From a virus (taxonomy: Duplodnaviria > Heunggongvirae > Uroviricota > Caudoviricetes), in the IMG/VR virus record IMGVR_UViG_3300046096_000174, positions 72,024 to 83,214 of that record: a stretch of DNA of 11,191 nt, one strand, 5' to 3'. Positions within the stretch are counted from its first letter, which is position 1. Every line of letters starts with the position of its first letter. This document shows, piece by piece, positions 283 to 7,904 of the stretch. The notes beneath the pieces are model-generated. The model was given only the letters and a program-made list of their open reading frames with translations, did not search any database and was not told the DNA's origin. Position numbers and translations under genes: made by a program.

Positions 283-1695
283 ATGCCGTGGAGCGCAAGC
301 AAGACTATTTCCTCTATGGAGGGAAAATCCTCGAAGTTGAAGGAGTTATTTGCAAAAGTTGCCAATGCTGCTCTCGCTAAAGGACAAACAGAAGAAGAGG
401 CTATCTTCGCTGGTACAATTTCAGTAAAGATAGAAGAAAAGAAAAATCAACCTGCGAAAGCTCAATCACCTAAGGTTCCAGCTCATTTGGCAGCTGTGAG
501 AAGTTTCTCTGAGCCGTATAGCATGGTTTCTAAAGCAGTTGAACCAGCGCCAGCTGTAAATAGCATAAAAGCAGCCGAGTTCGACAATCAAGGTCATTTA
601 GTATTATTAATGTCCGATAATACCAAGCTAGTATCTAAAACTAAGGCTGTACAAGAAAATATTGAACAGAGCGTATACATTACGAAAGATTATAAGCCAT
701 TTCTTGCTATGCAAGAGCCGACTGGTTTTCAAACTCGTGATACAAGTTCAATCAGTTTCGATGATGCAACACGTACATTCACTATAACAGCTACGAATAT
801 GACCAACGGTTTTAATGTTTGGTTACACGCTAATGAGTTTACGCGATATACTGAGTCTGTTCAAATTGAGAATATTACTGGAAATCACTTTATCTATTTC
901 GATTATCCAGACAATGAATTAAAATCTACGACTACACCTACACACGAATTATTTTTAGAGAAGGCATTAGTTGCCTTAGTGTTTTGGCGGTCAGATTTGC
1001 AGAAGCATATATATTTTGCCGATGAACGTCATGGTATTACAATGGACGGTGCAACTCATCAACATTTGCATTTATCTATTGGTGCTCAATATCGTGATGG
1101 TCTTGCTTTAAATAATTTTACTGTAGATGGTAATGGGACATTAAATAGTCACTCACAATTCTCATGTTCAGATGGGCATATTGCAGACGAAGACTTACTA
1201 ATAACTATCATAGATAATGCACCTCAGGAACTTTCTACTATAGCTTATCTTCCAATATTTTATAGACATGGTAATAATTGGGGAAAGAAAACTGCCTCGG
1301 CTTACTCAGTTATAAGACCAAATACAATACCAGAATATACAACAGGAACTCGCTGTGCATATAACGCTCAAGTTAATGGGGTCTGGGATGTGCTTGAAGT
1401 ACCAAATAATCAATACTTCTTAGTGCATATCTTAGCTACCAATGATATAGAAAATCCTATTGTTGGAATTTTAGGTAATACATATCAGAATAAACCTCAA
1501 GCAAGAGCTGGAGCATTAAACGAATTTAAGTATTTAACTGGTTTACCATTTCTAGAGTTTGTGAAATTAGGTACAGTAATTTTTCAAACCTCAGACAGTT
1601 TTACAAACACTCCAAAAGCAATAGTTGTTAGTACAGATACTGGCACATCATACATAGATTATAGACCTACAGGTCCATCTGTAATGGTCTTCTAA
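283..1695 (+). CDS. Putative virion structural protein: ChaB-like N-terminal helical domain, Pro/Ala/Lys linker, large beta-rich C-terminal domain of unknown function
   Basis: 470-aa ORF with AAGGAG RBS. aa 1-55 (MPW...LKELFAKVANAALAKGQTEEEAIFAG..VK) loosely fit the ChaB pattern. aa ~145-460 (EPTGF..R..S.ISFDD.TRTFTI...) are aromatic/Thr/Asn-rich. Confidence 0.55.
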   Translation: MPWSASKTISSMEGKSSKLKELFAKVANAALAKGQTEEEAIFAGTISVKIEEKKNQPAKAQSPKVPAHLAAVRSFSEPYSMVSKAVEPAPAVNSIKAAEFDNQGHLVLLMSDNTKLVSKTKAVQENIEQSVYITKDYKPFLAMQEPTGFQTRDTSSISFDDATRTFTITATNMTNGFNVWLHANEFTRYTESVQIENITGNHFIYFDYPDNELKSTTTPTHELFLEKALVALVFWRSDLQKHIYFADERHGITMDGATHQHLHLSIGAQYRDGLALNNFTVDGNGTLNSHSQFSCSDGHIADEDLLITIIDNAPQELSTIAYLPIFYRHGNNWGKKTASAYSVIRPNTIPEYTTGTRCAYNAQVNGVWDVLEVPNNQYFLVHILATNDIENPIVGILGNTYQNKPQARAGALNEFKYLTGLPFLEFVKLGTVIFQTSDSFTNTPKAIVVSTDTGTSYIDYRPTGPSVMVF

Positions 1696-1705
1696 AGGAA
1701 AACAA

Positions 1706-2065
1706 ATGCAACCAGCACACATTGATTTAACAATTTACAAAGGCTCTACTTTTAGTAAGAACTTCCAGTGGAAAACTGGTAGCCCTGCCGAACCAGTTAT
1801 TCTGACAAATTGCACCTTACGCATGCAAGTAAGAAAGAATGTAATGGATACAAAAGTCCTTGCTGAATTCTCATCTGAAAATGGTTTACTAACTGTTACA
1901 GACGGACCATTAGGTAAGATTCAGTTAAACATTCCAGCCGAGATTTCAACAGCCTTTGCTTTCACGGCAGGTGTTTATGATATCGAAGTTATCTTCATGG
2001 GTACAGGAGATGAATATCGAATTATCGAAGGTTGCTTCTCAGCTATTCCAGAGGTAACAAGATGA
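1706..2065 (+). CDS. Small beta-sandwich fibre-anchoring/adaptor protein (T5 p132/LtfC-like or BppU-N-like)
   Basis: 119 aa, AAGGAAAA RBS. Motif string L.I.KGSTF ... LT.C..RMQVR ... G.I.L.I ... GVYDIE ... RIIEG ... PEVTR, which I recognise from small phage proteins found next to fibre genes. Confidence 0.6.
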   Translation: MQPAHIDLTIYKGSTFSKNFQWKTGSPAEPVILTNCTLRMQVRKNVMDTKVLAEFSSENGLLTVTDGPLGKIQLNIPAEISTAFAFTAGVYDIEVIFMGTGDEYRIIEGCFSAIPEVTR

Positions 2066-2313
2066 GTGATGTAATTGTAGAAAGTTCTACGGAAACAATC
2101 GTAGTAGAGACTGAATTAACCACGGTTATTATTACCGCAGGTGAGCAAGGTCCAACAGGCCCTCAGGGTCTTTCAACAAATATTAGTGGTGCGCCAGATG
2201 TAGACATTACAGATTTACAAGATGGTTCTCTACTTATTTATTCTGCTCAAGAGCAAAAATGGGTTGCAAATACTCAGTTAACAAACCAAAGCCTAGAATC
2301 AGGGCAATATTAA
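2062..2313 (+). CDS. 83-aa fibre linker/adaptor with a mini collagen stretch
   Basis: Start reassigned to ATG 2062: ATGA overlap with the upstream stop and GAGGT RBS at 2051-2055. Contains GEQGPTGPQG and a 'DV....LQDGSLLIY.....W' fibre motif, and ends LESGQY. Confidence 0.7.
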   Translation: MSDVIVESSTETIVVETELTTVIITAGEQGPTGPQGLSTNISGAPDVDITDLQDGSLLIYSAQEQKWVANTQLTNQSLESGQY

Positions 2314-2326
2314 TCAAGGAAAAATT

Positions 2327-4681
2327 ATGGCTTCAATCGTAAGAATTAAACGCTCAGAGGTTTCTGGCAACCCTGCTACGCTAGGTCAAGGTGAATTAGC
2401 TTATTCAGCTTTAACTGATAACGGTAGCAACGGTGGTGACCGCTTATACGTAGGTATGGGTACTGAGACTGCAGGTAATGCTGTAAATCACGTAGTAATC
2501 GGTGGTAAGTACTTCACCGACATGATGGACCACACTAAAGGTGTTTTAGTAGCTAACTCTGCGTTAATTGTAGACGCAGCAGGTAAATTAGACAATTTAA
2601 AAGTTGACAACTTAGATTTAAACGGTAACACATTAAGTGCAACCAATGCTAACGGTAACGTAGAAATCTCTCCTAACGGTTCTGGCGCTGTTGTGCTTGA
2701 TGGTCAACACTGGCCTACAACTACAGGTTCTAACGGTCAGATTTTAAGTACAGATGGTGCAGGTCAAACATCTTGGACCGCTTTACCTTCAAGCTCATTC
2801 GAACTAGTGGGTAATACTGGTACTGACATGTTCAATACTGGCAGTTCATTAATCTTCTCAGGTGTTGGTGCTATTAGTACAGCCGTTACAGAAGATACAA
2901 TCACTTTCTCAGTAGCTTCTGCTTCTGATACTGCTAAAGGTGTTGCATCATTTGCAGCAATTGACTTTACAGTTACTGATGGTGCTGTAAGCTTAAACGC
3001 TGAACGAGTTCAAGATATTGTCGGTGGCATGGTCACTAACAACGTAGAATCAGGTATCGTAGTATCTTATGACGATGATAACGGTAAGTTAGATTTTCAA
3101 GTAAACAATCCTGTTATTACCATTTCTGGTGATGCAGACGGTTCTGCTACTATGACTAACTTAGGTAATACAGCTATTGCGATTACCTTAGACAACGTAA
3201 ACACTGCAGTTGGTACTTTCGGTTCAACTACTAATATTCCAGTTATTTCTGTAAATAGCAAGGGCTTAGTAACTGACGTTAGCACAGCAAGCATTTCAAC
3301 TTCATTTACTATCGCTGCTGATACTGGTACTCCAGACATTTTCAACAACGGTGAAACATTAAATATCGTAGGCGGCGAAGGCATTGATACAACTATCAGC
3401 GCCAGCACAAACACTATTACCATCTCTGCTGAAAATGCAAGTGATACTAATAAAGGTGTTGCTACCTTCAACACATCAAGCTTTTCAGTAAGCAACGGCG
3501 ATGTAACAATTAAAAACGCAGGTGTAACCAATAACCAGTTAGTTAATTCAACTGTAACAATCGGTTCAACCAGTGTAGCCTTAGGTAATACTACAACAGT
3601 ATTAGCAGGTTTAACAGAAGTCTCTGTAGATAACTTAAACTTAAATGGTAATTCATTAACAGCTACCGATGTTAACGGTAATGTCGCATTAGTTCCAAAC
3701 GGTACTGGTGTTGTTGACGTAACCGATTCACGTATTGCTAACGTAGCTACCCCTGTAAATGATTCAGATGCAGCTAACAAGCTTTACGTTGATACTGTAG
3801 CCGCTGAAGGTCTACACGTACAAGAAGGTGTTGACGCTGGAACTACAGACACATTAGCTGTCTTATCTGGTGGTGTAGTTGTATATAATAACGGAATTGA
3901 TGGGGTTGGTGCTACATTAACTACGACTGGTTCTTACGTAACTGGTTTACCTATTGACGATGTTAACTTACAAGCTATCGGTTACGGTAATGCTACAGTC
4001 TTAGTTAAGAACGAAGTAAACGCAGCTCACAACGGTATTTACGTTCTAACAAGTGCTACAGTATTAACTCGCAGAGCAGACTTCGATTCTGACGCTGACG
4101 TACAAGGTGGTGACTTCGTATTCGTAGTTGAAGGTTCTGATAACGGTGGTACAGGTTGGGTACAAACAGCTACTGTTGACGTAATCGGTACTGACGCTAT
4201 CGTATGGCAACAATTCTCTGGTGCAGGTACTTATACTGCAGGTTCAGGTTTAACTTTAACTGGTACAGAATTCTCTGTAAACGTAGTAAGCAACGGTGGC
4301 TTAGAGATTTCAGGTAACGCTTTACAACTTCAAACTAATATTGCAGGTGATGGTTTAACATTAACTGCAGGTGTATTAGCTGTTGTTGGTACTGCTGACC
4401 GCATCTCTGTAGATTCAAACTCTGTAGATATTGCTTCTACTTATGTTGGTCAATCTAGCATCACTACATTAGGCACTATCTCAACAGGTACTTGGAATGC
4501 TAATACCATTGCAACTACTAAGGGTGGTACAGGCTTGACAAGTTATACAACTGGTGATATACTATATGCTTCAGGTACAAATACCTTAGCAAAATTAGCA
4601 ATCGGTTCTAGTGGTAAAATTCTACAAGTTAACGGCTCTGGCGTTCCAGTTTGGGCCGATATCGATGGTGGTACGTATTAA
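2327..4681 (+). CDS. Long modular fibre protein (784 aa)
   Basis: AAGGA RBS; very rich in G/T/N/S/V/A. N-terminus MASIVRIKRS...GELAY resembles the Mtd_N/hyaluronidase-like attachment domains. Contains fibre motifs ERVQDIVGGM, GTFGS...IPVISVNSKG.VT, RIANVATP..DSDAANKLYVD, a NGIYV...RRADFD...FV.EG...W.QFSGAG domain, and a GGTG motif. Ends IDGGTY. Confidence 0.85.
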   Translation: MASIVRIKRSEVSGNPATLGQGELAYSALTDNGSNGGDRLYVGMGTETAGNAVNHVVIGGKYFTDMMDHTKGVLVANSALIVDAAGKLDNLKVDNLDLNGNTLSATNANGNVEISPNGSGAVVLDGQHWPTTTGSNGQILSTDGAGQTSWTALPSSSFELVGNTGTDMFNTGSSLIFSGVGAISTAVTEDTITFSVASASDTAKGVASFAAIDFTVTDGAVSLNAERVQDIVGGMVTNNVESGIVVSYDDDNGKLDFQVNNPVITISGDADGSATMTNLGNTAIAITLDNVNTAVGTFGSTTNIPVISVNSKGLVTDVSTASISTSFTIAADTGTPDIFNNGETLNIVGGEGIDTTISASTNTITISAENASDTNKGVATFNTSSFSVSNGDVTIKNAGVTNNQLVNSTVTIGSTSVALGNTTTVLAGLTEVSVDNLNLNGNSLTATDVNGNVALVPNGTGVVDVTDSRIANVATPVNDSDAANKLYVDTVAAEGLHVQEGVDAGTTDTLAVLSGGVVVYNNGIDGVGATLTTTGSYVTGLPIDDVNLQAIGYGNATVLVKNEVNAAHNGIYVLTSATVLTRRADFDSDADVQGGDFVFVVEGSDNGGTGWVQTATVDVIGTDAIVWQQFSGAGTYTAGSGLTLTGTEFSVNVVSNGGLEISGNALQLQTNIAGDGLTLTAGVLAVVGTADRISVDSNSVDIASTYVGQSSITTLGTISTGTWNANTIATTKGGTGLTSYTTGDILYASGTNTLAKLAIGSSGKILQVNGSGVPVWADIDGGTY
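2603..3709 (+). repeat. Diverged internal repeat A in the 784-aa fibre (copies 2603-2686 and 3626-3709)
   Basis: VDNLDLNGNTLSATNANGNVEISPNGSG (aa 93-120) vs VDNLNLNGNSLTATDVNGNVALVPNGTG (aa 434-461). Confidence 0.85.
2795..3511 (+). repeat. Diverged internal repeat B in the 784-aa fibre (copies 2795-2995 and 3302-3511)
   Basis: aa 157-223 SFELVGNTG.DMFNTG...TITFS..SASDTAKGVASF...FTVTDGAVSL vs aa 326-395 SFTIAADTG.PDIFNNG...TITIS.ENASDTNKGVATF...FSVSNGDVTI. Confidence 0.8.
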
Positions 4682-4688
4682 TTAATAT

Positions 4689-4714
4689 GGGCGGTTTTTA
4701 CCGCCCTTTCTTTT
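4689..4714 (+). terminator. Intrinsic terminator
   Basis: GGGCGGT-TTTT-ACCGCCC (7-bp stem) followed by TTTCTTTT, immediately after the 784-aa gene stop. Confidence 0.8.
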
Positions 4715-4733
4715 ACCTTTATTAAGGGCATGT

Positions 4734-6107
4734 ATGGCAAGTAAGATTATTCTTAAAAAGTCCTCAGTAGCAGCGAAAGCTCCTGTTGCAGGTGATTTAG
4801 ATTTTGGCGAGTTAGCTTTAAATTATACCGATGGTAAACTCTTCTTTAAGAAGGCTGATAACAGTATAGCATCTTTTGCACTTGGCGCTGCTCCGAGCGT
4901 AACAATTGGTACAACAACTACAGGTAATGCAGGTACAAATGCAAGTGTAACAAACTCTGGCACAAGTACAGATGCAGTATTTAACTTCACTATTCCTCGT
5001 GGAGACACTGGCGCTACAGGCCCAACAGGTGCAACAGGCCCTCAGGGTGAAACTGGTCAAACAGGTGCTACAGGTCCTCAAGGTATTCAAGGCGCAACTG
5101 GCCCTGCTGGTCCTACTGGAGCAACTGGTCCTGCAGGAACTAACGGAACTAACGGTGCTGCTGCTACTATTACATTGGGCACAGTCTCAACAGGTAATGC
5201 AGGTACTGCGGTTTCCATTACTAATTCAGGCACATCAAACGCTGCCGTATTTAGCTTTACTATTCCTCGTGGAGATACTGGCCCTGCTGGAGCGACAGGT
5301 CCACAAGGCCCTCAAGGTACTACAGGTGCGACTGGTTTAACTGGTCCTACAGGTCCACAAGGTGCAACTGGTAATACAGGACCAACTGGTGCTGCAGGTG
5401 CTGCTGCTACAATCGCTGTCGGCACAACAACTACTGGTACTGCTGGCTCTAATGCCAGTGTAACAAACTCAGGTACAACAAGTGCTGCTGTATTTAACTT
5501 CACAGTCCCTCAAGGTGCAACTGGTCCTCAAGGTGCTACAGGTCCTGCTGGTCCAACAGGCGCTACTGGCTCTCAGGGTATTCAGGGCGCTACAGGTCCC
5601 GCAGGTGCAACAGGTCCTCAAGGTCCTGCTGGTCCTACTGGTTCAACAGGTGCTACTGGTGCAACTGGCCCTCAAGGTCCTGCTGGTCCTGTTGCTGGCT
5701 CTTCTTCACAAGTTATTTATAACAATGCTGGAGCTGCTGCTGGTTCTGCCAACTTAACCTTCAACGGTACGGATTTAACTTGTGGCGGTAACGTCACAGC
5801 TTATTCTGATGAAACCCTAAAGACTAATTGGCGCGATTTACCAGACAACTACATTGAGCTATTAGCACAAGTAAAGAATGGTATTTATGACCGTATCGAT
5901 GGAGCTACTGACCAAGTTGGTGTATCAGCTCAATCCTTATTAAATGCCTTAAAGCAAGCTGTATTAGCAGATGCTGACGGTATTTTATCTGTAGCTTATG
6001 GTAATGCTGCTTTAGTTTCTGCTGTTAAATTAGCAGAACGAGTTGTAGAACAAGACCGTAGAATTGCAGAATTAGAGCGATTATTATCGAAAATTATCGG
6101 TGATTGA
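4734..6107 (+). CDS. Collagen-like fibre with C-terminal peptidase S74-type intramolecular chaperone
   Basis: N-terminus [10 protein letters not shown]...GELALN..DGKLFFK. Three Gly-X-Y runs of 17, 14 and 20 triplets. aa 358 onward: SDETLK ... GVSAQ ... LSVAY ... terminal coiled coil, the typical S74 layout with Ser/Lys five residues apart. Confidence 0.88.
4884..5693 (+). repeat. Three tandem units of a 39-aa non-collagen module plus a Gly-X-Y run
   Basis: 39-aa modules at 4884-5000, 5154-5270 and 5397-5513 (consensus GAA.T..[IVL]GT.[TS]TG.AG..[AV]S[VI]TNSGT...AVF.FT[IV]P), spaced 270 and 243 nt apart. Each is followed by [12 protein letters not shown] triplets. Confidence 0.95.
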
Positions 6108-6117
6108 TAAATTTCAC

Positions 6118-6146
6118 TTGATTTCTTAATAAAAATGTGATATAAT
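6118..6146 (+). promoter_or_regulatory. Sigma70-type promoter P2 with extended -10
   Basis: TTGATT (6118-6123), 17-nt spacer, TG at 6138-6139, TATAAT (6141-6146). Intergenic, upstream of the protease. Confidence 0.75.
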
Positions 6147-6177
6147 TATGTTTATATACTTACAAAACGGAGCGTAA

Positions 6178-6930
6178 ATGGAAACAGATAAAACTATAAG
6201 TTTCGCTCCTTCAGAGGCAATGCGAAATAATGCACGAAGAGGTTTAGCCTTACGTGAAAAATGGAATAGAGGTGGACTAGCTATCTCTAAAGCCAAAGAA
6301 ATTATCGCAGGTGATTTAAAGTTAGAAGACGTTAAAAAGATGTACTCTTTCTTCTCGTCTAATGAGAAACAATATCTACCAAAAAGTAAATTAAGTGATG
6401 GTGGTCCTACAGAAGGTACTATTGCTTGGTTATTATCTGGTGGTTCTGCAGGGCAAGCTTGGACCCGTATGCATTTAAAGCAAGCAGAGATTGTCAAATC
6501 TTATACTAAAGAAATTACCGATAATGAATTAAATTCAGAAGATATCCTTTTAGGTGAGAAGCTTGCTATTACTAAAGCTGTCGATGAAGAATTAAAACAA
6601 GCTACTTTTATTGTCATGGTTCCTGATGAGGTTGATGCCCACGGAGATACGACAACTGAAGCTGAAGTTCGCAAGGCATGTCATAACTTCAATAAATACT
6701 CAATGAAGGCTAACTTATTTCACTTAGTTGAAACAAGTACTTTTGAGTTCTGTGAAAGTTACTGCTGCCCTACTGATTTTGTTCTTGGCGATAAGTTCGT
6801 TAAGAAGGGTACTTGGTTAGCCACAGTACAGTCCTTAGATGATAGTCTTTGGGCCTTAATCAAATCAGGCGATATTAACGGTCTAAGCATTGGTGCTTTA
6901 GCATCAGTCGAAACAATTGAAGAGGAATAA
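6178..6930 (+). CDS. Prohead maturation protease, XkdF/peptidase S78_2-like, with an extra ~100-aa N-terminal domain
   Basis: GGAG RBS. aa 134-245 carry EELKQATFIVMVPDEVDAHGD, NLFH, KKGTWL and IKSGDINGLSIGA, characteristic of XkdF-type proteases. Sits directly upstream of scaffold, decoration and capsid genes. Confidence 0.85.
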   Translation: METDKTISFAPSEAMRNNARRGLALREKWNRGGLAISKAKEIIAGDLKLEDVKKMYSFFSSNEKQYLPKSKLSDGGPTEGTIAWLLSGGSAGQAWTRMHLKQAEIVKSYTKEITDNELNSEDILLGEKLAITKAVDEELKQATFIVMVPDEVDAHGDTTTEAEVRKACHNFNKYSMKANLFHLVETSTFEFCESYCCPTDFVLGDKFVKKGTWLATVQSLDDSLWALIKSGDINGLSIGALASVETIEEE

Positions 6931-6932
6931 CG

Positions 6933-7904
6933 ATGGCAACACAACGTAAAGCTAAAAGAAAACTTTCTGATATCAGCTTTGAAAAAGAAGGCGCTCACGT
7001 AGCACTAGTCTCTAAAGAACAAGGTGGTCCTGCTAATACGCATGATTATGCTCTAGTTTTAAAGGCTAATAAATTCAGTGAAGAGTTTGTTCAAAAGATG
7101 CAACAGATTCGCGTCACTATGGAACTACCTGATTTTCTACAAAAGTTTTTCGGATTGTATTACTCAGATTCTAAAGTTTTAGCTGCAATGCTTGGCTATG
7201 TAGAACCTGCAGAAGAAGAAGGTAATGGTTACGAAGACTATATTCAGTCTCAACTACAAGCTTTTGAAGTCTTAAAATCAGCTCACGATGCTGAAAGTTT
7301 AGCTGCTATTTTAGCTAACTTAGACGAAACCGAATATTTAGCTATGCTCAACGACCAAGAGTTAATTGAAAAAGCTTTTGCAACCGTAGAGAAAGCAACT
7401 GAATCTGCACCTCCTGCTAATGCAGAAGGTACTGATACCTCACCCGCATGCGAGGTTATTAAAGAAGAGGTATCTGCCTCTGTTAACAAAGAAGAATTGG
7501 AGAAATCTAAGATGGATGAAGATGTAAAAATCGAAACCGTAGAAAAAGCTCAATTTGAACTAGTACAGAAAGCTCTAGACGAGCAAAAAGTAGAGTTACA
7601 AAAAGCTTTAGATACAATTGCTGCATTCGAAGCTGAGAAAAAAGAAGCTATCAATAAAGCAAAATTCGAACAAGTTAAAGCTATCGTTAAAGACGAAAGC
7701 AAAGTAGAGGCAATCGCTAAGGCTGCTCTATCATTAGAATCTGAAGATGATTTTACAGCGTTTCTAGCTGCTATGCAAGCTATGATGACTACTGTTGAAA
7801 CATCTGAGATGTTTGTTGAAAAAGGCGCTTCAGCTACTGAAGAACCCGCCATTCAAGAATCTGCTGTGGCGAAAGTGTTAAAAGCCAAGCTAACCACTAA
7901 GTAA
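6933..7904 (+). CDS. Capsid scaffolding protein
   Basis: 323 aa, acidic and E/K/A-rich with a coiled-coil-like C-terminal half. N-terminal motif AKRKLSDISFEKEGAHVALV...QGGPAN. Lies between protease and decoration/MCP. Confidence 0.75.
   Translation: MATQRKAKRKLSDISFEKEGAHVALVSKEQGGPANTHDYALVLKANKFSEEFVQKMQQIRVTMELPDFLQKFFGLYYSDSKVLAAMLGYVEPAEEEGNGYEDYIQSQLQAFEVLKSAHDAESLAAILANLDETEYLAMLNDQELIEKAFATVEKATESAPPANAEGTDTSPACEVIKEEVSASVNKEELEKSKMDEDVKIETVEKAQFELVQKALDEQKVELQKALDTIAAFEAEKKEAINKAKFEQVKAIVKDESKVEAIAKAALSLESEDDFTAFLAAMQAMMTTVETSEMFVEKGASATEEPAIQESAVAKVLKAKLTTK
7512..7904 (+). CDS. Probable nested in-frame short scaffold product (130 aa, from Met194)
   Basis: GGAG at 7499-7502, 9 nt before the in-frame ATG at 7512. 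The 11-mer AATTGGAGAAA (7495-7505) is identical to the RBS context of the gene starting at 11167 (11151-11161). Confidence 0.55.
   Translation: MDEDVKIETVEKAQFELVQKALDEQKVELQKALDTIAAFEAEKKEAINKAKFEQVKAIVKDESKVEAIAKAALSLESEDDFTAFLAAMQAMMTTVETSEMFVEKGASATEEPAIQESAVAKVLKAKLTTK

Follow-up and report, generated by a model that had tools for sequence, protein, structure and literature searches.

Phage T5 carries side fibres made of a single polypeptide, pb1, which is about 1,400 aa long and has an S74 self-cleaving chaperone. These fibres are anchored by the p132 collar, which is threaded by the first ~50 residues of pb1 (10.1101/2022.09.20.507954). In phage T4, gp36 binds the N-terminal region of gp37 (PMC3004832), and many T-even relatives have an S74 chaperone at the end of gp37 as well (PMC12143355); no atomic interface of the gp36-gp37 joint was found in the literature searched, in which a T4 cryo-EM preprint reaches only ~7–8 Å for the distal rod. 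Mtd of Bordetella phage BPP-1 is located at the tail fibre ends (PMC2408619), and the mtd gene comes directly after the fibre gene bbp9. In the branched receptor-binding sets (K1-5 gp37, G7C gp66/gp63.1, CBA120 tailspikes), separately encoded fibres or spikes are stacked via conserved N-terminal modules and the partners are encoded by neighbouring genes, but the modules are T4 gp10-like or T7 gp17-like adaptor domains that dock side-on (PMC4819975, for part of this description).

Here we analyzed a window of 11,191 nt, the whole stretch of DNA from position 72,024 to 83,214 of the IMG/VR virus record IMGVR_UViG_3300046096_000174 (Caudoviricetes), in which neighbouring genes likewise encode separate fibre proteins with conserved N-termini. 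The conserved C-terminal motifs are hereafter called tails and the shared N-terminal domain the docking domain. The features are as follows:

1706..2065, + strand: 119-aa Ig-like protein, matching phrog_1084 (E 2e-24) and phrog_3304, 'L-shaped tail fiber protein assembly' (E 7.6e-7)
2062..2313, + strand: 83-aa adaptor with a short collagen-like GxxGxxG stretch and the tail LESGQY (2293-2310), then stop
2327..4681, + strand: 784-aa fibre protein 1 with the docking domain (~2327-2410), a variable shaft and the tail IDGGTY (4661-4678), then stop
4734..6107, + strand: 457-aa fibre protein 2, the putative terminal member, with the docking domain (~4734-4860), collagen-like repeats (~4998-5762) and Peptidase_S74 (5805-5966)
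4658..4766, + strand: predicted 784-457 joint, the modelled strand pair being encoded on both sides of the 52-nt gap

The start ATG of the 83-aa ORF overlaps the stop of the preceding gene, and the successive fibre ORFs sit in different reading frames, separated by gaps of 13 nt (83/784) and 52 nt (784/457). A preliminary description of the sequence had read them as a series in which each protein with a tail is followed by a gene that opens with the docking domain, and the ORFs bear this out: the 83-aa protein ends in SLESGQY and lacks the N-terminal K[KR]S..GELA motif, the 784-aa protein starts with MASIVRIKRS..GELAY and ends in DIDGGTY, and the 457-aa protein opens with the K[KR]S..P..GELA domain and ends in KIIGD, so that the first has a tail without a domain, the second has both, and the third has a domain without a tail. 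Even at E 10, no Pfam family was matched by the N-terminal 80 residues of either fibre, by the C-terminal 79 of the 784-aa one or by the entire 83-aa protein, while residues 468-694 of the 784-aa fibre are similar to PDB 9efk orf22 and to the capsid decoration protein 9nx3. The 457-aa fibre matched Pfam Collagen (E 2e-23) and, at residues 358-411, Peptidase_S74 (26.0 bits vs. a cut-off of 22). The Ser..Lys pair is present at the start of the latter domain (S-D-E-T-L-K, 358-363); this intramolecular chaperone is probably cleaved off. The ..VTAY considered as a tail of the 457-aa protein after S74 cleavage was rejected, because Tyr precedes the Ser in only 20 of 47 homologues. A 470-aa protein gave no match in Pfam, PHROG or PDB.

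The distal half-fibre of T4 is the closest counterpart. A profile of the window-type domain (59 sequences) was aligned by hhalign with 11 T-even gp37 N-termini at 97.5% (E 6e-12, 45 columns), and on this profile evidence the docking domain and the gp36-binding N-terminus of T4 gp37 are homologues. In both systems the upstream-encoded partner ends in acidic-x-Gly-x-Tyr-stop, and the next gene starts a few nucleotides further on: T4 gp36 ends in DFGYY-stop and is followed by gp37, and in 21/21 T-even relatives gp36 ends in DFG[YT][YF], 7–9 nt ahead of gp37 (one has an extra Ser). Trimers join end to end in T4, as is proposed here, with the distal member bearing the receptor end. Unlike T4, the window would have two successive joints with the tails ESGQY and DGGTY, its first partner is an 83-aa adaptor (gp36 has 221 aa), and equivalents of gp34 and gp35 are absent. 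A tail-sheath gene was also not found in the phage genome by Pfam search, and the fibre cassette has the portal gene on one side and the prohead protease gene on the other.

The preliminary description had assigned the N-termini to the Mtd_N/hyaluronidase type. Pfam Mtd_N (PF18454) had no match even at E 10 within the N-terminal 80 residues of either fibre protein, and T4 gp37 was also without a match; what stands is a remote likeness of the window-type profile to three Mtd_N sequences of 39–44 bits (hhalign 73.8%, E 2.9e-5, 38 columns), to which the gp37 N-terminus aligned at 85.5%. Homology to gp37 and this remote likeness to Mtd_N would make the joint one of the T4 gp36-gp37 kind. The window resembles BPP-1 in its gene order and, remotely, in its N-terminal domain, but Bbp9 ends in DLGGIA and the window tails in Gx[YF]. 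In other contigs, bona fide Mtd_N genes come after IDGGTY-stop genes, and the second tail type to which the Bbp9 end belongs, DLGxxx (DLGSVA, DLGSDSSV, DLGALT), stands ahead of half of the sampled canonical Mtd_N genes. PDB sequence searches with the docking-domain profiles returned chance matches or isolated Mtd only, and no solved joint. The branched sets, for their part, are not known to use a C-terminal pentapeptide strand that docks into a gp37/Mtd_N-like N-terminal domain (PMC4819975, in part).

A regex search through the six reading frames of the 83,214-bp genome found exactly two tails and two docking domains, with both tails directly upstream of a docking domain. Among 80 related viral contigs, the enrichment that the preliminary description had proposed to look for was found: the docking domain comes next in 102 of 106 distinct tail-ending ORFs vs. 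17 of 838 other ORFs, an association far above chance in counts that are phylogenetically non-independent. The pairing was found again in ~160 viral contigs, in the cultured Limnohabitans phage DC31 and Methylophilales phage Melnitz (freshwater and marine) and in the Vibrio podophage 1.208.B; tblastn with the 50-aa docking domain retrieved only four records of cultured phages because the query is very short. The expectation that a tail is always followed by this domain is borne out in the window and in its close relatives but is no universal rule, since in an unbiased DNA scan for IDGGTY-TAA (TAA stops only) 81/81 matches closed an ORF of at least 60 aa, while the docking domain was directly next in ~49/76 genes (~64%) and adjacency was absent in about a third.

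The tail itself is conserved in sequence and in position. Over the last 100 residues of 62 homologues of the 784-aa fibre, mean column identity is 29%, and the only invariant or nearly invariant columns are the last five, D-G-G-T-Y. At loci not selected by tail, [DE]GG[TS][YF] was exactly C-terminal 102 times, one residue short five times and internal in no case, these conservation counts being drawn from related contigs and not from independent events. Homologues of the 83-aa adaptor (74–143 aa) end in [ILVM][ED][SGA]G[QHE][YF]-stop in related contigs. An extra residue beyond the aromatic one occurs in Melnitz (GGTYS) and in one T-even relative (DFGYYS), and this tolerance weakens a strict need for the Tyr carboxylate. 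A G.Y ending was found in only 1 of 120 homologues of the 457-aa protein.

As the preliminary description had suggested, the tail was modelled together with the N-terminus of the next gene product, using three copies of the C-terminal end of the 784-aa protein and three of the N-terminal end of the 457-aa protein. The 3+3 model scored 0.85 (best control 0.09), a mark that 58 of 80 solved complexes attained, as did 2 of 110 mismatched pairs, although these calibration counts hold only roughly here, as our own alignments and the 3+3 set-up differ from the calibration. At least 98% of the contacts agreed between runs, and the pLDDT of the partner was at least 88. In the model, A777-Y784, the final strand of the 784-aa fibre, pairs with K4-S11, the opening strand of the 457-aa fibre, and Y784 contacts K8, K9, S10, K15, P17, D21, and A28. 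In the 59-sequence alignment, two of these contact positions (P17 and A28) do not vary and two others (K8 and S10) hardly do. The idea of a free C-terminal peptide as the ligand is retained insofar as the tail is predicted to lie in a conserved pocket, but the modelled interface also takes in ~10 residues further upstream, which touch the partner and could confer specificity. The controls were unrelated proteins rather than scrambled tails or non-cognate fibre ends, and generic stacking of trimeric fibre ends may therefore account for the score; within these terms, the model supports the predicted 784-457 binding.

In DC31, Melnitz, and many contigs, too, the gene of the small adaptor is closely preceded by the 119-aa gene. 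The AlphaFold model of its product (pLDDT 92.7) found its best PDB matches in the T5 tail tip (7qg9, chains L/J) and the DT57C baseplate (8hqz), with Foldseek E 3e-8 and TM 0.73 (E 3.4e-8 and TM 0.73 for 7qg9_L). Judged by its predicted fold, the protein is a structural homologue of the T5 p132 collar protein, and by analogy with the p132 collar, a dodecameric ring around the tail tube, it is the probable anchor ring for the fibre chain, although a neck site is also conceivable, as similar Ig-like proteins are known in phage necks as well (9oab). The window shares with T5 a p132-fold protein ahead of the fibre genes, a summed fibre length close to that of pb1 (83+784+457 = 1324 aa) and the same type of S74 chaperone at the end of the chain; unlike T5, its fibre is split over three proteins with tail-and-domain joints.

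Taken as a whole, these results are best explained by a side fibre made of three different trimers set end to end, from the 83-aa adaptor through the 784-aa fibre to the 457-aa collagen-like tip, and we put the probability of such a chain, joined by docking of tails into domains, at roughly three in four. At each joint, the last beta-strand of the proximal protein would align with the one that opens the N-terminal domain (K[KR]S..P..GELA) of the distal protein. The docking strand would end in hydrophobic-acidic-small-Gly-x-Tyr/Phe with its carboxylate free, and the terminal aromatic residue and carboxylate would sit in a pocket of conserved Lys/Arg, Ser, Pro, and Ala. The tip protein would fold with its C-terminal S74 chaperone, which is afterwards cut off, and the chain would probably hang from the T5 p132-like collar protein of 119 aa. 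The motifs, their conservation and strictly terminal position, the homologies, and the controlled model are what the analysis provides; we infer that the proteins bind physically, that they do so as trimers, that the free carboxylate plays a part, and that the chain is attached to the collar. The extensible chain encoded by gene order, as first proposed, keeps the core that these observations back, and is corrected with regard to adjacency, precedent, Mtd_N, and the peptide acting alone. Its remark that no description as a general code was known has to yield to the T4 gp36-gp37 precedent, but a motif-level rule was indeed not found in the literature: no paper in our search stated one, and the string DGGTY gave nothing on phages. 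The joint looks like that of T4 gp36-gp37 in a far more widespread, sequence-readable form.

The loci all come from related cassettes, and adjacency could accordingly be inherited synteny, with the pentapeptide serving as a cap that only its own fibre needs, to fold or to close the trimer, and the next domain binding elsewhere on the virion. Such a cap would fit the tail genes whose neighbour is not a docking gene but a neck gene (gp13-like) or one for a podovirus internal-type protein, and Vibrio phage 1.208.B, in which three tails face two docking domains and pairing is thus not simply one to one. We consider it quite unlikely, given that the tail is retained on wholly different preceding domains and on adaptors of 70–110 aa, that T4 gp36 and gp37, with the same motifs, are known to bind, and that the modelled tail occupies the next protein's conserved pocket. 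Partner genes lie kilobases from the tail-bearing gene in podovirus-like contigs, and two near-complete contigs of this kind have the docking-domain fibre gene elsewhere in the genome. The numbers in 1.208.B would also suit real but generic joints that form a branched or alternative set, in which either the 784- or the 457-aa fibre sits on the 83-aa adaptor and a virion has two kinds of fibre; the order of the genes would then not fix one 83-784-457 chain. The domain behind a DGG-type tail varies in type (66 fib2-type, 9 fib1-type, and 36 others), BPP-1 fibres are reported with two Mtd trimers each (PMC2408619), and some relatives have near-identical tails at both joints (L035, L059, and L078, with IDGGTY twice in L035 and others), which means that something besides the pentapeptide must determine the order. 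A branched set is nonetheless unlikely here: the two tails of the window differ (ESGQY vs. DGGTY), the E[SGA]G type precedes 784-type N-termini only (36/36), and the predicted contacts upstream of the tail are a possible source of specificity.

Short gaps, 13 and 52 nt here and a median of 33 nt between tail gene and next gene overall, together with GGNGGN codons that could mimic a ribosome-binding site, could hint that the gene ends act as a signal at the nucleotide level (for translational coupling, for ribosome binding, or for ORF-fusing recoding) that involves no protein contact. This is highly improbable, and both of its forms were rejected: each tail position uses several synonymous codons, which points to selection at the protein level, and fusion or recoding disagrees with the different frames of consecutive ORFs, with gaps ranging from -1 to 193 nt, and with the lack of any fused form, the docking domain being N-terminal in 120/120 homologues of the 457-aa protein.

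Beyond the end-to-end chain in this phage, we tentatively suggest, at somewhat less than even odds, a portable and sequence-readable docking code for multi-protein fibres across podo-, sipho-, and myovirus-like phages, in which the tail of one protein docks by adding a strand to the gp37-N/Mtd_N-type domain of its successor, in at least two dialects ([ILV][DE][GSA]Gx[YF]-COOH and D[LM]Gxxx-COOH). If true, a single rule would cover chains of one to three joints, adaptors of ~80 aa that consist of little beyond domain and tail, and partners encoded kilobases apart, and the wiring of fibres would be predictable from genomes and fibres recombinable at their joints. Fibre proteins determine which bacteria a phage attaches to, and most of them are annotated just as hypothetical or 'tail fiber', with their binding partners unstated. 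A terminal-motif rule could allow annotators to wire multi-protein fibres by sequence alone, would account for swaps of fibre segments between unrelated phages with assembly competence kept, would supply an atomic-level hypothesis, open to testing, for the gp36-gp37 joint of T4, and would mark natural junctions for chimeric fibres in laboratory phage-host systems.

The window forms the right-hand end of a phage genome of 83,214 bp. Its fibre cassette and the head genes after it are all on the + strand; the cassette comprises:

283–1695, +, 470-aa orphan protein at the head of the cassette
1706–2065, +, 119-aa protein with a p132-like fold
2062–2313, +, 83-aa protein (adaptor), ending LESGQY-stop
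2327–4681, +, 784-aa fibre, starting MASIVRIKRS..GELAY and ending IDGGTY-stop
4734–6107, +, 457-aa fibre with collagen repeats and a Peptidase_S74 chaperone, starting [16 protein letters not shown]

The preliminary description was exact in its sequence observation: the adaptor and the 784-aa fibre end in a short tail motif ([ILV][DE][GS]Gx[YF]-stop, here LESGQY and IDGGTY), and both next genes start with an N-terminal docking domain (K[KR]S..P..GELA). The C-terminus of the 457-aa fibre is without the tail motif, and a genome-wide regex scan found no tails or N-terminal domains beyond the two of each in this cassette. The 470-aa protein had no sequence match in Pfam, PHROG or PDB; it is kept at the cassette head in Limnohabitans phage DC31 (478 aa), while an unrelated glycine-rich 560-aa protein takes its position in the T4-like Methylophilales phage Melnitz.

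DC31 and Melnitz, cultured phages that differ greatly in kind, have the same layout: a protein of ~90 aa and the next fibre are both tail-ended (..IESGQY, then ..IDGGTY in DC31; ..NGGTF, then ..IDGGTYS in Melnitz) and a domain gene comes after each. Across 80 viral contigs carrying the N-terminus of the 457-aa fibre, [ILVM][DE][GSA]Gx[YF]-stop ended the preceding gene for almost all genes with the domain, the apparent exceptions being mostly artefacts in which a 113-aa ORF was chosen over the small ORF adjoining the fibre. The domain came next in 102 of 106 tail-ending ORFs vs. 17 of 838 other ORFs, counts that are not phylogenetically independent. As a reverse test, the DNA of viral contigs was scanned for IDGGTY followed by TAA. 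Among the matches listed, all 81 closed an ORF of at least 60 aa, and a regex recognized the domain in the next gene for 42 of the 76 with enough downstream sequence; a divergent version followed ~7 more, which brings adjacency to ~64%. About 22 of the exceptions among these listed matches were small proteins (67–111 aa) from podovirus-like contigs, with an N-terminus of a different, virion-attachment type, and both near-complete contigs of this class encode a domain-bearing fibre elsewhere in the genome. A T4 gp13-like neck gene came next in three exceptions among the matches listed. In Vibrio phage 1.208.B (locus L229, Zobellviridae), four consecutive genes (4040–7546) carry three tails vs. 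two domains, in the order tail only (146 aa), tail only (173 aa), domain and tail (159 aa) and domain only (688 aa), and one tail-bearing gene has no domain in the gene after it. Given the exceptions in the scan and in 1.208.B, the earlier statement that the tail is always followed by the domain is too strong: it describes the window and its close relatives, but does not apply to all phages. Co-occurrence of tail and domain within a genome looks more general than adjacency.

The podovirus-like proteins of 67–111 aa form a family that starts with MSNYTK.T.FA.KD and ends with ..TIDGGTY (loci L085, L098, L109, L116, L134, L153 and ~15 more), and their stop overlaps the start of a 280–610-aa protein that contains an FRPFTVTTGTG motif. 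The family resembles tail adaptors whose C-terminal tail would be offered to a fibre from a gene lying kilobases away.

The tail itself is the most constrained part of the fibre end. When the C-terminal 100 residues of the 784-aa fibre's homologues were aligned (62 sequences, mean column identity 29%), the last five positions, D-G-G-T-Y, were the only invariant or near-invariant columns. Their codons vary synonymously, and the constraint therefore acts on the protein. At loci that were not selected for the tail, [DE]GG[TS][YF] occurred in 107 distinct ORFs, 102 times at the exact C-terminus, five times one residue off and never internally, a distribution that fits a role for the free protein end and a motif that would be tolerated at the very end only. 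A candidate third tail would arise if an S74 cut before Ser358 (window 5784–5822) left the mature 457-aa fibre ending in ..GGNVTAY; it is probably not one, because Tyr precedes Ser in only 20 of 47 homologues. Elsewhere in the 784-aa fibre, residues 468–694 (window 3728–4408) match PDB 9efk 'orf22' (E 4e−13), the 'capsid decoration protein' 9nx3 (E 6e−8), PHROG 'head decoration' and cyanophage or mycobacteriophage decoration proteins, and this region is therefore a domain common to fibres and head decoration proteins.

A multimer model of the kind proposed in the preliminary description was built from the C-terminal 100 residues of the 784-aa fibre and the first 90 of the 457-aa fibre, three copies each, using separate alignments. 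The complex scored 0.85 vs. 0.09 for the best of three controls, all of them unrelated proteins rather than scrambled or non-cognate fibre ends. In the calibration, 58 of 80 solved complexes attained this mark, as did 2 of 110 mismatched pairs; the counts hold only roughly here because our own alignments and the 3 + 3 set-up differ from the calibration. Contacts agreed by at least 98% across runs, with a partner pLDDT of at least 88; sequence searches of the PDB turned up no similar complex, which makes it unlikely that the model reproduces a known structure. The model supports, as a prediction, binding of the 784-aa C-terminus to the 457-aa N-terminus. In it, strand A777–Y784 pairs with strand K4–S11 of the partner, and Tyr784 contacts K8, K9, S10, K15, P17, D21 and A28, of which K8, S10, P17 and A28 vary little or not at all in 59 homologues. 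The conserved Lys/Arg residues may neutralise the terminal carboxylate and the Asp. Contacts with the partner extend to residues 762–775 of the 784-aa fibre, and the interface is therefore larger than the tail peptide. One 320-aa homologue (P0058) has a second, internal docking-domain motif at residue 172, the sole internal copy among 120 proteins.

A counterpart of this joint exists in T4, where gp36 ends ..QDFGYY-stop and gp37 starts 8 nt later with the same K-R-S..P..GELA domain; this arrangement was present in 21 of 21 T-even relatives fetched, and the profiles of the window-type domain and the gp37 N-terminus matched with 97.5% probability (E 6e−12). Trimeric gp36 is established to bind the N-terminal region of gp37 (PMC3004832), a region seen at only ~7–8 Å in the newest T4 cryo-EM work and modelled from predictions. 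The homologous domain, the gp36-type tail and the known gp36–gp37 binding together argue that the window would encode a T4-type joint, used twice in series.

The proposed chain (83, 784, then 457 aa) also implies an order. Tails of the E[SGA]G type preceded only domains like that of the 784-aa fibre (36 of 36), while DGG tails preceded 457-type domains in 66 cases, 784-type in 9 and others in 36. Some phages carry an identical tail at both joints, so the order is not always set by the pentapeptide on its own; a branched or alternative assembly, instead of one linear chain, is a less likely alternative, and the three tails vs. two domains of 1.208.B suggest branching or alternative fibres there.

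The N-termini had also been labelled as Mtd_N-type, for which only a remote similarity was recovered: no window protein matched Pfam Mtd_N, but the window-type domain aligned to Mtd_N-type sequences in hhalign (74%). Bona fide Mtd_N genes (39–44 bits, cut-off 26.3) do come after IDGGTY-stop genes in other contigs. For half of 72 canonical Mtd_N-type genes the preceding gene ends IDGGT[YF]-stop, and for the other half the tail is DLGSDSSV, DLGSVA or DLGALT; the tail thus has two dialects or more. The C-terminus of Bbp9, the BPP-1 fibre bearing Mtd at its end (PMC2408619), is DLGGIA. At loci L101, L104 and L230–L309, proteins of 78–87 aa consist of an Mtd_N domain and an IDGGTY tail; the gene before them encodes a ~110-aa protein with a DLGSV or DLGAFS end, and the gene after them a large Mtd_N fibre. 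They are minimal link pieces that would place two dialects in series.

Attachment to the virion may involve the 119-aa protein, whose confident model (pLDDT 92.7) had as best PDB matches the T5 collar protein p132 and its DT57C homologue (Foldseek E 3e−8, TM 0.73), in agreement with its phrog_3304 match; similar Ig-like proteins also occur in phage necks. The T5 side fibres are anchored on a dodecamer of p132, through which the N-terminal ~50 residues of pb1 are threaded (10.1101/2022.09.20.507954). Compared with pb1, the window trio amounts to 1,324 aa with an S74 chaperone at the end, and by analogy the three proteins would correspond to a pb1-like side fibre in split form. The cassette (470, 119, 83, 784 and 457 aa; window 283–6107) sits inside the head-morphogenesis block, in an unusual position between the end of the portal gene and an XkdF-type prohead protease, which is followed by a scaffold and a lambda-E-type capsid protein, whereas the equivalent cassette of Melnitz directly precedes the neck genes gp13/gp14. 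A Pfam search of the genome for a tail sheath gave no hit.

Anchor domains conserved at the N-terminus are already known, as are fibres of several polypeptides in phages other than the T-evens (PMC4819975), and an end-to-end fibre joint is known from T4. The earlier view that a general assembly code was undescribed is therefore narrowed to the motif rule itself, for which, as for the strict C-terminal position of the tail and its occurrence in phages of widely differing kinds, second dialect included, we found no description in the literature. The predicted terminal-motif rule is relevant to phage structural biology and annotation.
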